Assembly (NCBI RefSeq): GCF_011745625.1
Contig: NW_027191463.1
Location: forward strand, 62,001 to 126,000
Direction of reading: 5' to 3'
DNA length: 64,000 nt
From: Cladosporium halotolerans
Taxonomy: Eukaryota
Shown piece after piece: positions 1-30,530 of the stretch. Below the pieces are notes generated by a model, which saw only the letters and a program-made list of their open reading frames with translations, had not been told where the DNA came from and did no database searches. The stretch's first letter is position 1; each line of letters starts with the position of its first letter. A program made the translations under genes and the position numbers.

Positions 1-3000
1 TCCAGCACCTTCCAGCGGAGCGTCTGGATTCGGTGGAGCGACAGACTTCAGCTTCCCCGCCGGCCAGAACCGAGGCGAGAACACCGCCCCTCGTGGCGGC
101 AGAGGAGGTGGATCTGCAGGCAGCGGACACGCTCGGAGACACTCACTTGCGCTTCCCGAAGCGAAGAAGGCTGCCGAGGCGGCTGAGGCGAAGAGGAAGA
201 CTAGTGGTTTCCAATTCCCTATCCCGAACGCCAGCGGCGCTTCTCCCAACCGCTCCGAGAGCCCTGCCAACCCGGCCGATGCGCAGCAGACGCCCCCAAG
301 CGCCTCTAGAGGCGGCATGGGCGGCCGTGGCCATGGCCGCAGCCAGAGCATGGCTGTCGGTGGCAGAGGTATGGGCAGCATGTCCAACACCGGCCGCGGT
401 GGCCCCTCCGGCTTTCAGTTCCCTCCTCCGCAGGCTACCAACGACGCTGGGGCCAACTCCCAGAACGACATCCTGCGTCGTGGAAGTGGCCACGGCAGGC
501 AAAGCTCTCGCAATTTCGACTCCAACTGGCGCCAGCCTCAGCCTCAGGCCCCTACCAACGAGCAGCAGGGTCAAAACATGGGCAACTTCAACATGAACCA
601 GCACACGACCGCCCAGCCGTTCCAGCCCGGCCATCGCCAGCGTGGCTCCATGCAGGCGCAGTCCGTCAGCTCTCTGGGCAACTTCCAGTACCAGCCGCAG
701 CCTCCGCTCATGCAGTTACCTCAGGGCCAGGTCCTCCTTCAGCAGCCTAATGTGTTTGCCGGTCAGCAGCTCAACGCTCTTCAGATGGCTCAGATCCAGG
801 CCTACCAGCAGGCCGGCATCCAGCCGAACTTGGCTACGATCACTGGCAGCCAGCACAACGCCCCGCAGATGGGCCCTGGCATGGGCCAGCAGCAACAGCA
901 GCGCAAGACACTCTTCACTCCTTACCTGCCGCAGGCAACGCTGCCCGCGCTCCTCGCCAACGGTCAGCTCGTCGCGGGTACTCTCCGTGTCAACAAGAAG
1001 AACCGCAGCGACGCCTACGTCACGACGGCTGACCTCGATGCGGACATCTTCATTTGCGGTAGCAAGGACCGCAACCGTGCTCTTGAGGGCGATCTCGTTG
1101 CTATTGAGCTTCTTGATGTCGATGAGGTCTGGGGCCAGAAGCGCGAGAAGGAAGAGAAGAAAAAGCGCAAGGATGTCTCTGATAGGAGCGGAAGCATCCA
1201 CGCTGTCAACGACGCTACCACCCAGCCCGAAAGCTCTTCCGCCGCTCAGGAGGGCGGCATTCGCCGCCGCGGCAGTCTGAAGCAGCGCCCGACCCAGAAG
1301 AAGAACGACGACGTCGAGGTCGAGGGTCAGAGCCTGCTCCTCATGGAGGAGGATGAGATCAACGATGATCAGAAGCCGCTCTACGCTGGTCATGTCGTTG
1401 CTGTCATCGAGCGTGTAGCTGGCCAGATGTTCTCCGGCTCACTCGGTCTGCTTCGCCCCAGCAGCCAGGCCACCAAGGAGAAGCAAGAGGCCGAGCGCCA
1501 GGCTCGCGAAGGTGGCAACGCCCGTCAGCAGGAGCGTCAGCAAGAGAGGCCCAAGATTGTCTGGTTCAAGCCAACCGACAAGCGTGTGCCTTTGATCGCC
1601 ATTCCGACCGAGCAGGCCCCCAAGGACTTCGTGGAGAAGCACCAGGAATACAGCAACAAGATCTTCGTCGCTTGCATCAAGCGCTGGCCCATCACTTCCC
1701 TCCATCCTTTCGGTACCTTGGTTGAGCAGCTTGGCGAGGCCGGTGAACTTAAGGTGGAGACCGATGCCTTGCTTCGCGACAACAACTTCGGCCCCGACGA
1801 GTTCTCCGATGCCGTCGTCAAGAACGTTGGCCACGATGAGTGGTCCGTTGCCAATGACGGTGAGGAGGCTCTTGCCAACCGTCGCGACTTCCGCGATGAG
1901 AACACCTTCACCATTGACCCCAACGGCAGCAAGGAGCTTGACGACGCTCTCCACCTGAAGGATCTTGGTGATGGCATCTACGAAATTGGTGTCCACGTTG
2001 CAGACGTGGCTCATTTCGTCAAGGCCAACTCTCTTGTCGACCGTGAGGCCAAGAAGCGTGGCACCGGAGTCTACTTGATGAATAGAACCGTCAACATGCT
2101 TCCGGCCAAGCTTTCTGCCGAGATTTGCTGCCTCCAGCCCGGCGAAGAGCGCTACACCGTCTCCGTCGTGTTCAAGGTCAATGCTTCTACTGGCCAAGTT
2201 TTCGAGGATGACACTTGGGTCGGCAAGAGTGTGATCAAGAGCACTGGCAAGCTTTCGTACGATGAGGTCGACGCCGTTATCGGCGGCAACGGCACCCACT
2301 CCCTTGACCAGAGCCGTGTGCAGGATATCAAGATTCTTAACGATGTCACTCAGCGCTTCCGTCAGGCTCGCTTTGGAGGCGAGGAGTCTTCGATCCCGCC
2401 GCTCCGCCTGCTGTACCAGCTTGACGACGAGAACGTTCCTGTAGAGCAGAACATCTTCGACTCCAGCCCATCCCACGAGATGATCGAGGAGCTCAGCCAC
2501 AAGACCAATGCCTTTGTCGCGGAGAAGATCCATGCTGCCATGCCTGAAAAGGCCCTCCTGCGCCGCCAGGCAGCTCCCAACCAGCGTCGTCTGAACCTGT
2601 TTGCAGAGCGCATGAACAACATCGGCTACGAAGTCGACATCTCCAGCAGCGCTGCTTTGCAGAACAGCCTCTTCCGCATTGAGGATGCCGATGTCAGAAA
2701 GGGCATGGAAACGCTCGTCGTCAAGGCCATGTCCCGTGCGAAGTACTTCATCCCGAGCAAGATCCCTGACAACACTCTTTCGCACTACGCCTTCAACGTG
2801 CCTCTGTACACGCACTTCACCAACCCCTCTCGTCGCTATGCAGACATTGTCGTCCACCGCCAGCTTGAGGCTGCCCTCTCTGACGGCGCCATTGAGTTTG
2901 CTGAGGACGCGGAGAACCTTTCGAAGACCGCCGAAAGCTGCAACACCAAGAAGGACTCGGCCTTTGCTGCTCAGGAGCAGAGTGTCCACATCGAATCTTG

Positions 3001-26339: not shown

Positions 26340-27206
26340 GTCGCGATAGATTGACTTGTGTATAGGGAGAAATCGTCAATGGAATGAATAGAGGTGTCGC
26401 TGGGATCCAAGAAGTCTGGAGGTAGCGGCGATCTCTGGGTATACATGCTCGTCCGGACTTTATCTCTGGGCACCTCCGGGATCTGCAGTCGATGTTTCAT
26501 GCCAAGTAGACAGATGCAGGACTAGACTGTGCGGAACCGTAGGTGGCGCCCATCCTTGCACGTGGGTTGCGGTTCTTCCTGCTTCACCTTTACTTCCTCA
26601 CCATCCAGGTCTGCAGTCAGACACTTTAGACCTGGCCCGACACCGCCGCCCTTCGTCTTGGCTGCATGTCGATCGGGAAGAGTTCAGCCATGTGGCGCGC
26701 GGCAGAGGAAGAGAACTTCTAGAATCGATAAGGCACAGATGCCGCATTGCGATGGAGGTGCTTCCCAGACCAGTCGCATATACGAAGGCAGGCAGTGGCG
26801 TGTCAGCACAAGGCGCCAGACCTCGGAGCATTGCTGCTGTTGATTTGGGACGTTGATCGCCCTAATCAAGCTGATACAATACCTCAAGATTTCGTGACGT
26901 ACAAGACGACGGCATCGGCAGATGGTGCCTTGCTCCATTCCGTGCCCTGATCAGCAGAGATCGGCGCGGAGAAAAGTACCGCGCCTCTCGCGATTTTACA
27001 AATGATGGAAGTGCCACTTGAGATCGACTTGATTTGGTCAAGGTCGGGTGCAGCACCAATTTATCTTTTGTTATAATATTACCTAGCTGTCTTTTTTCGC
27101 TTCATGGGTTGAGAGCAAATAGGGTGGTGGTGGAAGGGCGTGATATAACATGATTGTGAATTTAATTGCAGCGATTGACATCATCGAACGTCCAGTTCAA
27201 CCCACG

Positions 27207-27334
27207 AGCTGAGTGGCGCAGCGGAAGCGTAAGTTATTACTCCCGCAGTATAGTGTCATCTCTACACATTCTAACATCTCTCAGGCGCCGGGCTCATAAC
27301 CCGGAGGGCAATGGATCGAAACCATTCTCAGCTA
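27207..27334 (+). tRNA. Initiator tRNA-Met (CAT) split by a 56-nt GT-AG intron in the D-stem (exons 27207-27228 and 27285-27334)
   Basis: The joined exons give 72 nt: AGCTGAGTGGCGCAGCGGAAGC|GCGCCGGGCTCATAACCCGGAGGGCAATGGATCGAAACCATTCTCAGCTA. Acceptor stem AGCTGAG/CTCAGCT (A1-U72), D-stem GCGC/GCGC, anticodon arm CCGGG-CTCATAA-CCCGG, T-arm AATGG-ATCGAAA-CCATT (A54, A60). Confidence 0.93.
27229..27284 (+). other. Spliceosomal-type intron within tRNA-iMet
   Basis: 5' GTAAGT, branch site TTCTAAC (CTAAC at 27271-27275), 3' TCTCTCAG. Its size and signals match the mRNA introns in this window. Confidence 0.88.
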
Positions 27335-27335
27335 C

Positions 27336-27346
27336 TTTTTTTTTTT
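27336..27346 (+). terminator. RNA polymerase III oligo-T terminator (T11)
   Basis: Run of 11 T starting 2 nt after the tRNA discriminator A. Confidence 0.85.
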
Positions 27347-27682
27347 CTTTTGCCCTTCCAGTCTTAACCAGGAAAGGGCAGGACGTCTTGAAATTGTTCC
27401 CCATTTTTGCCTGCAAATTCGACAGAAAGGAACCATCCCGATTCAACCGTGACTGTCGAATGCACCTTACAACCGTGCCAGGCTCTGCACACGTTTGTTC
27501 CACTAACTCGACTATCTCCTGAGGCTTGACCAAGCTCCTCTGCACGTACACATGGACGACACGGAAACATGATTTTGAGAATCCCAACATCAAGTTTCCA
27601 ATCCGACGTTGGCTACAGTATTTCTCGAGGGACTAACGGTTAAAATGAGAGTGAGAGTAGAAAGTGCAATTGAACTCGCATT

Positions 27683-29040
27683 CTACTCATACGTGTAGCA
27701 GAACAGCTCGCCCTCAGTGTTCAAAGCCTCGCGCAAGGTTATCGGCGGCGCGATGGCTCCGAGATCGATCTGGAAGTCGAGAGTCACATTCTCGCCGCCA
27801 AAGTCGAGGTAGTGCACTGGACCGCCAATGTCGGTAAGCCTATTTTCGAGATCCTTTTGCTGCCACTTCCAGAAAACGTAATCAATCATTGTGTGGTGCA
27901 TGTAGAAGAGAGGTTCTGGGAGAAGTTAGCAAGCTTTCTACAACAACTGGACCAATCGATATACTCACCACCGGGGCTGTTGGCAGCGTCTCCAGCCTGG
28001 CCGAGCATGCCGCCGACGCCAAAGTGGCCACCTGCGTGGATCGCCGGGATAGCGAAAGATGGTCCACCCTCAAGCTGGCGAGCGAACTTGGTGTAGTTAG
28101 GCTGGTCGAGGACCAATTGCACCTGCTTGGGATCCGCATCCTCGTGCAGGACAGCTTGATCTTTAGTCAGCACAATCCTCTTGGAATCACGCATTGTTGC
28201 GAGACACGTACCTGGAAGGAAGTCACGGCGAAGGCAGGATGAGCCATTCTTCTCACCAATGTTCACATGGAAGTTGGGCACCGTAAACGGACCATCTTGG
28301 ACGCATCCACCTCCCGAGCGGCCCCAAGCCCTGAACGGACCCTCCACCTCTTCTGGCAGCTCGACGTACTTGCCATTGCCACCGAAACCCACAGTCGGAG
28401 AGAAGACATCAGTGTCATAGATGGCAACGGACAGGTTGTTGTTGGGCTGTGCATCGAGAGACCAGTTCCAGTATCTATGAGCTGTCAGCATCTGTATCAA
28501 CAGAACCAGACCGGAGCTGACTTACGGCTGGCTGCCCTTGTATCCACAAACGTCCCGGAGAGTCCTCTCGTACTCGTGCATCATGTAACGATGCCATGAC
28601 GCAAAGTGGCCAACGAAATGAATGTTTGGAGTTTGAAGGTTGTGCACCGCGTGGAAGTCATCGTAACGATTGATCGGGTTAAGATCACTGTTGTTGGCAA
28701 ACTGCTCTTTCGTGATGGCCGGTTGGTGTTGGAGACAGAGAACTGCGTCGATGTAGTCCTTCTTCTCAACATCGGTCAAGGCTCGCCTGGGTGTCAAGTG
28801 TCAGTGTTTCTCCTCGCCTGACAATACCTTGGATGCTACGCACCATTCCTTCCTGACGCGAGGGTTCTCGCAGGCTCCAGTACCTTTTGGGGGAGGGTAC
28901 GGAGTTGGTGCCTCGGACTCACAAGGCTCGCTTTCTTCCTGCGGAGACCTAGACAGCAGCGAGTTGGACGCTCCAGCAGGAGCCGCAATGATGTTGCAGG
29001 CCGAAGTCAGGACGACCGCTGCAGTAACGAATGAGTGCAT
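27683..29040 (-). CDS. Secreted short tyrosinase/polyphenol oxidase (type-3 copper)
   Basis: Signal peptide; RKEWRAL; CuA RYDDFHAVH..IH..F..WHR; PYWNW; CuB IHAGGH..SPGEPLFYMHH. Four introns; ends LFCYTYE with no C-terminal shielding domain. Confidence 0.92.
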
Positions 29041-30530
29041 AGCGAATGTTGTGGCTTGCCAGATTGCTGTTGGTGGAGATGGACTTCTCTGATCGTCGAA
29101 GGGACTTCGAACGATATTTATAAAAACAATGCTATGGCATCTCTAAAGTGGCCCATGGACGGGGCAATTGCCACGGACATTCTACATCGGCAGTGCTCCG
29201 ACGGCAGAAGGACTACTCTAGAGGACATGGGTGTATGCCGCCTGCTACTCTACCAGGATTTTCAAATAGCATCGCAATAGATTGGCTCTAGCAAGGAAGA
29301 GGCCGGATCTTGGACAAGGGAGGATGAAGCGAAGGATGATTTAAAGTAGGTTTGTTTATTTTGTGCCGTCCTTCAGGCCTCGGCCGATTGGCCGAGCGGG
29401 CTGCGCCCCCGCCTCGCAACGCTTCCGAGCTGCAGGTCAGCGGCGTTCAGGGACCGTCTCTTCAACCTCGACGTGACCAGGGATCTATACCCACTTAGAT
29501 GGAAGAATTGCATCCGTTGACAAGCACGCAGGCCATCTGGCCCAGTATTTGCGGCGTAGACGAACTCTTGCCAAGCATTAGGATCGTTGTTTCGGCGCGA
29601 GTCGAGGGGGTCACAGAAACTTGCCATTCTTGTGTTGGTTCCTACTCGGAGCGAAACCACCGCTTGTCCATGAATTTGTAGGGCAGAGGCTCTCAGGGCA
29701 GAAAGCCAGGCTTGAGAGTCAAACGTCGAAGGTAGCAGTCTGCTGTGCTTTCTATGACCGGAGAATAAATCGGCTCTCTGAACGGGTGGAAGATCACTTT
29801 CTGAGACTCTTCCTGAGTCGGGCCTCGTGGATCGCTTCGGCCTCTTCCGATCATGCTTCCCATGGATTCGAGAATAATACATCCACAAGAAGATGCCTGA
29901 ACCGAATTATTACTTTCGGCAACGCTAGCTTTGGACAGGGACAATTCAGCCGGATCAGGCTTGCCTCTCTGCCATTGGGGAAAGCACGGCATCGACATGG
30001 ATCTGTTACCAATGAGATCCTTCATTACTCTGCCTGGTTTGCCACAAGTTGACCTTGATACCCAAGTGCAAGGATGAGAGCGTCTAGGTCTCCGGTACAC
30101 TAGACCCTTGTTGCTTACTTGCTGTGGTTACATTCACTACAGTATATGCAAGTACAAGTTGCGAAGCTTTGAAATCTGGGTAGGTGGGATTTATGGCACT
30201 TCAAAATTGTTTGCCATCCGAAATCCTTTCCTACCCGTAGTGCCTGATGATGCTGGATGAATTGTGTATATCTCTCACTTACTAGGCCGATTCCTGCGAT
30301 CAAGCATGCTGCATATTGCGGCGTTGAGACACGGGGCACTTCCCTGTTAGACCCTCAGTCGCTGATTACAGAAAGACTTGGCTGCTGTCTTCGGGATCCT
30401 CAGTCGCGCAGGTTCGGCATCGACCAATGTCCAGCGTTACCACGATGATTCGTATGCTCCAGGTGGCTCCTGACTACCTCCAATATCTTTGTGCATCTCT
30501 TTCTGACCGCTTCATCGCGCAACTTTCTAC

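Follow-up and report, generated by a model that had tools for sequence, protein, structure and literature searches.

A candidate spliceosome-type intron in the D-stem of an initiator tRNA-Met gene of filamentous ascomycetes

Introduction

In the relevant passages of two reviews, the introns of messenger RNAs (mRNAs) and of some non-coding RNAs are assigned to the spliceosome and those of transfer RNAs (tRNAs) to a protein endonuclease and a ligase; canonical nuclear tRNA introns, located at position 37/38, are cut by the tRNA splicing endonuclease (SEN/TSEN) and the exons are joined in fungi by Trl1 (PMC10275265, PMC10680797). The single U6 gene of Schizosaccharomyces pombe, transcribed by RNA polymerase III (Pol III), contains an intron excised by the spliceosome, and many fungal U6 genes contain introns with canonical signals in otherwise unconserved sequence, according to the sections of a review that deal with them (PMC5855946), which also cites spliceosomal introns in the U1, U2 and U5 small nuclear RNA (snRNA) genes of Rhodotorula hasegawae. 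Introns outside 37/38, some of them in the D-arm, are described for tRNA genes of the Guillardia theta nucleomorph and of Cyanidioschyzon merolae in the parts of two papers that concern them: the nucleomorph inserts are 3-24 nucleotides (nt) long and their removal was confirmed by reverse-transcription PCR, the removal route being not known, and for C. merolae the bulge-helix-bulge (BHB) motif is named as the critical determinant for the endonuclease (PMC4090602, PMC3978253). Here we analyze a locus in a 64,000-nt stretch of Cladosporium halotolerans DNA (contig NW_027191463.1, positions 62,001 to 126,000; the whole stretch is called the window below), for which an original prediction had proposed an initiator tRNA-Met gene interrupted in the D-stem by a GT-AG intron with a branch point. 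At the level of the sequence this proposal is strongly supported, and it is extended here by five further loci. Our best reading, which we hold with a probability of roughly 0.65, is that the locus is a Pol III initiator tRNA-Met gene of a Dothideomycete with a functional, ancient, spliceosome-type (U2-type GT-AG) intron.

Nuclear ribosomal RNA (rRNA) genes of lichen-forming ascomycetes contain spliceosomal introns; they are like our locus in that an mRNA-type intron lies in a structural RNA gene of Pezizomycotina not transcribed by Pol II, although the transcript there is made by Pol I and is a different RNA. U1, U2 and U5 genes are transcribed by Pol II and encode components of the spliceosome, unlike the initiator tRNA gene, while the R. 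hasegawae snRNA genes, as cited in the review, are like it in carrying mRNA-type introns in conserved parts of fungal small structural RNA genes. With fungal U6 the locus shares a small Pol III non-coding RNA gene with a canonical 5' splice site, branch site and 3' splice site, and, as here, most fungal U6 introns are without experimental validation of their splicing according to the relevant section of the review (PMC5855946). The host here, however, is a tRNA, a class with its own dedicated, protein-only splicing pathway, and whereas the position of U6 in the catalytic centre of the spliceosome provides a ready origin by reverse splicing, no comparable proximity is known for a tRNA. Like a canonical tRNA intron, the insert lies in a nuclear tRNA gene and has to be removed for a working tRNA, but its position (23/24), its signals and its presumed machinery differ. 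Unlike the nucleomorph and C. merolae tRNA introns, it has no BHB, and the conserved elements are GT, the branch site and AG.

Full-text literature searches, whose coverage excludes most subscription journals, turned up no account of a tRNA gene with a spliceosomal or mRNA-type intron, and none of a fungal initiator tRNA gene with any intron, so that an older report is possible in either case; the passages found in tRNA reviews of 2014 (PMC4090602) and 2023 mention no mRNA-type tRNA intron. New here are the inserts at the same site in five further loci, with their splice signals kept and their interiors unalignable.

Results

Removal of 56 nt restores an initiator tRNA-Met

The split gene occupies positions 27207-27334 of the plus strand and, read from the letters of the window, consists of 22 nt, an insert of 56 nt and 50 nt (Table 1). 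On re-reading, the boundaries of exons and insert and the motifs GTAAGT, CTAAC and CAG all stand where the original prediction had placed them. When the exons were joined by coordinate with a script, ARAGORN called a 72-nt tRNA-Met(cat) with all stems paired and a standard 7-nt anticodon loop with CAU, in agreement with the initiator cloverleaf that had been predicted to form once 27229-27284 is removed. In Sprinzl numbering, with position 17 absent, the break is at 23/24, within the D-stem's 3' strand. Since the junction is flanked by G on either side, the break could be shifted one base later with an identical product; the GT-AG reading alone fixes its position.

The joined tRNA carries the hallmarks of an initiator. 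The acceptor end has A1-U72, and this pair is A-U in all five sequences (the window and the homologues described below) that reach position 72; three consecutive G-C pairs stand at the loop end of the anticodon stem (5/5 sequences); and the T-loop is ATCGAAA, with A54 and A60 (AUCGAAA replacing TPsiCRA), in the window and in 4/4 complete homologues. The D-arm of the window gene is the form common to yeast, plant and animal initiators, and exon 1 is invariant from position 7 on in 6/6 genes of the alignment. By these hallmarks, the identity of the gene as a cytoplasmic initiator tRNA-Met is strongly supported, with methionine charging and use by eIF2 as predicted properties.

As a chance control, GTNNGY...YAG candidates with a length of 38-150 nt were collected from the two strands of the window and removed one at a time, and each product was submitted to ARAGORN (n=2456). 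The only removal that yielded a tRNA across the joint was that of 27229-27284 (1/2456). The unjoined gene fared as the original prediction had guessed, namely that standard tRNA finders would miss or truncate such genes: a standard ARAGORN run on the window reports 0 tRNA genes, a run with introns allowed misreads the split gene (27207-27335) as a tRNA-Ser(gct) with a 53-nt 'anticodon-loop intron', and the Rfam tRNA model covers exon 2 alone, at 20.2 bits against a gathering score of 29. Annotations of such fungal genomes may omit this initiator gene or carry a false tRNA-Ser instead. The ARAGORN run with introns allowed also returns a spurious tRNA-Thr(tgt) at 27413-29678 of the window, with a 2174-nt intron.

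Five further loci carry an insert at the same site

Contigs from metagenomes were scanned with the end of exon 1 followed by GTNNGT, and at least 119 loci were returned. Among the 119 listed, five (L005, L053, L054, L092 and L112) carry an insert of 48-53 nt at the same site. L112 is cut by the end of its own contig, and the complete genes are therefore those of the window, L005, L053, L054 and L092 (n=5). The remaining matches, among those listed, are mostly chance matches in bacterial DNA, and at least 11 are ordinary intron-less initiator genes of other eukaryotes, whose D and anticodon stems contain the pattern. ARAGORN called tRNA-Met(cat) in 4/4 complete metagenome homologues after joining by script and in 0/4 unjoined. 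L092 and L112 have the same exons as the window, and L005, L054 and L053 have different acceptor and T stems.

In the alignment of the six genes, the joined cloverleaf pairs in 109/109 cells, and seven pairs are compensatory, with both sides changed (three in the acceptor stem and four in the T stem). In a control in which the 3' partners were slid by 1-3 columns, just 18-44% of the cells pair. Because all of the cells pair and seven pairs compensate, against 18-44% in the slid controls, it is the joined tRNA, not the interrupted form, that is under selection. The intron interiors behave differently: identity between lineages ranges from 2/26 to 13/31, the close pair L092/L112 reaches 20/31, and the interiors are unalignable, against 57-72 identical positions of 72 in the complete exons. 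The original prediction had proposed to see whether the splice signals are conserved while the interior diverges, and this is the pattern of the six genes, with the qualification that in the five metagenome genes the search itself fixed GT..GT of the donor.

Two other scans had a different yield. Viral contigs searched with the exon-1-plus-donor pattern gave 2 chance matches and no tRNA. A scan of genome contigs with a 23-nt word of exon 2 returned no fungal DNA; 21/21 matches were bacterial tRNA-Met, and the scan is uninformative on the split gene. This word, taken from the fungal initiator's anticodon arm, has exact matches in tRNA-Met of 21 bacterial genomes (L120-L140) of many phyla, and short exon words are therefore not specific to fungi.

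Conservation and the possibility of a dead or bypassed gene

Inserts in the D- or T-arm of eukaryotic tRNA genes are mostly held to be pseudogenes, as stated in the passages found in the 2014 review (PMC4090602), and the split gene could accordingly be dead or bypassed, without maturation and with intron-less genes elsewhere supplying the initiator tRNA. Intron-less initiator genes do exist in a class related to that of the window: the 284 curated tRNA models of Aspergillus niger NRRL3 list six identical intron-less initiator-type genes (PMC6108506, supplementary table 1). These are like the window gene in their length of 72 nt, in A1..U72, in an identical anticodon arm and in the ATCGAAA T-loop, and unlike it in that they lack an intron and differ in the D-arm, the acceptor stem and the T stem (PMC6108506). 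The table contains no gene with the D-arm of the window, but the four finders behind it (PMC6108506) are likely to miss split genes, and on its basis the split form can be neither claimed nor denied for A. niger. A dead or bypassed gene, however, would not hold the complete pairing and the seven compensatory pairs over two fungal classes, would not keep donor, branch site and acceptor at a spacing of 9-12 nt around a randomised interior, and would not retain a terminator at most 18 nt away in 5/5 loci. The conservation pattern argues against the pseudogene view for this gene, and we regard a dead or bypassed gene as rather unlikely.

Splice signals resemble those of mRNA introns

In the five metagenome loci, the search pattern fixed positions 1, 2, 5 and 6 of the donor and left positions 3 and 4 open. 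It contained neither the branch motif nor the 3' splice site: the motif is CTAAC in 5/6 genes and CTAAT in 1/6, with the branch A 9-12 nt from the intron end in 6/6, and the introns end in CAG in three genes and in TAG in the other three. A branch motif together with a YAG end arises by chance in 30-53 of 20000 shuffles per intron. For comparison with mRNA introns, a strict search of the window accepted short GT..AG inserts located inside long open frames, and it gave 11 candidates with a median length of 60 nt (range 45-97), GTRAGT-like donors and CTRAC/CTGAT 6-25 nt before YAG. The tRNA insert (56 nt; 48-56 nt in all six genes) fits these 11 candidates in size and signals, and the U2-type donor, branch and acceptor signals that the original prediction had likened to those of the mRNA introns of the window are confirmed as such. 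A first heuristic for mRNA introns, which gave 187 candidates mostly within open reading frames, was dropped as too permissive.

A real intron at this site could also be cut by the tRNA splicing endonuclease and joined by tRNA ligase, at a non-canonical position; eukaryotic endonucleases can cut at such positions, for which they need a BHB motif, the nucleomorphs and C. merolae being cited as cases in the passages concerned (PMC4090602, PMC3978253). We tried every register of 3-nt bulges around both junctions in the five complete genes, requiring a central helix of four pairs, and found a BHB with a 4/4 central helix in 0/5 genes. The best central helix has 3/4 pairs in one gene and 2/4 in the other four, and no pairing is possible between the conserved beginnings of the intron and of exon 2. 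The six interiors, moreover, have no common structure or sequence, the insert is at 23/24 and not at the canonical 37/38, and cleavage by the endonuclease would leave the conserved GTAWGT, the CTAAY at 9-12 nt and the YAG unexplained. We therefore consider removal by the endonuclease very unlikely.

Nothing was found in favour of a self-splicing or mobile element, be it a transposon footprint or an intron of group I or II. The conserved catalytic fold of group I and II introns takes at least some hundred nucleotides, and the inserts, at 48-56 nt, are far under that size; no Rfam intron family matched at the insert at E up to 10, and the six interiors share no sequence. An origin of this kind is extremely unlikely.

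The gene has the features of a Pol III type-2 gene

Type-2 Pol III promoters consist of an A box and a B box within the gene, and elements resembling the consensus of both are present in the exons (Table 1), about 88 nt apart owing to the intron. A run of at least five T follows 2-18 nt downstream of the gene in 5/5 loci with the 3' flank present, and the longest T run within the six introns is 3. The gene thus looks like an ordinary Pol III type-2 tRNA gene, from which we infer its transcription by Pol III.

Splicing by the spliceosome is normally coupled to Pol II, and this leaves room for another route, in which the spliceosome would act on a Pol II transcript (read-through, or a host RNA that is non-coding), the tRNA would be freed by RNase P and RNase Z, and the Pol III features would not drive expression. 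The gene is alone on the plus strand, flanked by minus-strand genes for a dienelactone hydrolase-like and a tyrosinase-like protein, and an unannotated transcript across it is conceivable. The A and B boxes, however, are intact, the T runs follow the gene as closely as in ordinary tRNA genes, and the flanks are not conserved between the lineages carrying the split gene. A Pol III transcript can, besides, be spliced, as S. pombe U6 shows in the section of the review that treats it (PMC5855946). Maturation from a Pol II transcript is, in our judgment, quite unlikely, and Pol III transcription of the split gene remains the preferred reading.

Two observations concern the upstream flank. Position -1 is G in the window (27206) and A in L005, L053, L054, L092 and L112, and the 20 nt upstream of the gene are A/C-rich in most of the six loci.

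Table 1. Features of the split initiator tRNA-Met gene (positions in the window).
Feature	Position	Strand	Content and conservation
Exon 1	27207..27228	+	5' acceptor strand, positions 8-9, 5' D-stem strand, D-loop, first two 3' D-stem bases
A-box-like element (TGGCGCAGCGG)	27214..27224	+	within exon 1; invariant in 6/6 homologues
mRNA-type intron, 56 nt	27229..27284	+	between tRNA positions 23 and 24
5' splice site GTAAGT	27229..27234	+	GTAAGT in 5/6 homologues, GTATGT in 1/6
Branch-site motif CTAAC	27271..27275	+	presumed branch A 27274, 10 nt before intron end; 9 nt separate motif and end
3' splice site CAG	27282..27284	+	YAG in 6/6; outside search pattern
Exon 2	27285..27334	+	last two D-stem bases, anticodon arm, variable loop, T-arm, 3' acceptor strand, discriminator A
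Anticodon CAT	27295..27297	+	inside exon 2
B-box-like element (GGATCGAAACC)	27313..27323	+	also initiator-type T-loop with A54, A60; ATCGAAA invariant in the 5 homologues reaching it
T run, 11 T	27336..27346	+	begins 2 nt after gene; Pol III terminator-like

The split gene in two classes of filamentous ascomycetes

Genes for Sld3, an RNB protein of the Ssd1 type, a P450 and a PHD protein mark the window as nuclear DNA of a fungus. Among named relatives, those that score best against its Ssd1-like protein are Dothideomycetes (76-80% identity), among them Cryoendolithus, Meristemomyces, Zasmidium, Dothistroma and Zymoseptoria. For two of the metagenome loci, neighbouring genes point elsewhere: the nearest named relatives of a PI-PLC-like protein beside L054 and of a kynurenine-formamidase-like protein beside L053 are Helotiales (Leotiomycetes). 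By these comparisons, the split gene occurs in at least two classes of filamentous ascomycetes, which meet only at the base of leotiomyceta. Since the insertion site is the same in Dothideomycetes and Leotiomycetes, the intron is probably old and predates the split of the two classes.

In both Helotiales loci the initiator gene adjoins the same RRM-protein gene (Pfam RRM_1; shared peptide stretch), which lies at 3-856 (-) in L053 and at 1958-2500 (-) in L054; the initiator gene adjoins the 5' end of the RRM gene in the former and the 3' end in the latter. This RRM protein may resemble the splicing factor Tat-SF1/CUS2.

Discussion

Taken with its homologues, the split gene points to a role of the spliceosome in the maturation of a tRNA, since moulds that are only distant relatives keep the same split. 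In the pathway that we propose, the precursor would be transcribed with the intron included, U1 would pair with GUAAGU and U2 with the CUAAC branch site, the intron would leave as a lariat through the spliceosome, and the joining of the exons would complete the D-stem; trimming of the ends, addition of CCA and modification could come after splicing or in parallel. That the intron is removed, and that the spliceosome does this, we infer from the sequence comparison; the maturation of this tRNA would then need the spliceosome.

In the unspliced RNA of the window (27216-27230), and correspondingly in that of L092 and L054, the first two bases of the intron (GU) can replace the missing GC of the D-stem, so that the predicted precursor folds of L092 and L054 keep a D-arm-like hairpin that closes on a G-U pair. 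The precursor might still appear tRNA-like to La, RNase P or modification enzymes.

Several points weigh against a functional spliceosomal intron in a Pol III gene. Conservation of the donor (GT..GT) counts as independent evidence only in part for the five metagenome loci, set as it was there by the search pattern, and the lack of T4+ in the six introns is a weak, non-discriminating sign of Pol III transcription, with T4+ in only 1/11 mRNA-intron candidates. Exon 1, at 22 nt plus leader, is very short for a substrate of the spliceosome, and a Pol III transcript would be without a cap. Six metatranscriptome or transcriptome runs match 26900-27650 of the window at just 0.04-0.07 of the sampled words, which is no evidence of expression. 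To these are added the prevailing view of D- and T-arm inserts as pseudogenes and the intron-less genes of A. niger, given which the split gene may be a minor or specialised paralogue. DNA runs from at least 10 coded organisms contain 0.42-0.97 of the sampled words of the same intergenic segment, and no conclusion is drawn from them.

The finding can be carried further, to the proposal that leotiomyceta have, in large part, canonical initiator genes with an ancient spliceosomal intron and that the spliceosome routinely acts on a Pol III tRNA precursor; we regard this as possible and put it forward tentatively, as something we doubt more than we believe. If it is true, a second, hitherto unrecognised pathway of eukaryotic tRNA splicing has been hidden by the blindness of tRNA finders, and each round of translation initiation in leotiomyceta would depend on the capacity for pre-mRNA splicing.

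For the split gene itself, an essential tRNA with a conserved GT-AG intron in its D-arm would breach the divide between spliceosome and endonuclease. If the spliceosome does remove this intron, it would have in the initiator tRNA a second natural substrate made by Pol III, in addition to U6, and the supply of initiator tRNA in these fungi would be tied to their splicing capacity.

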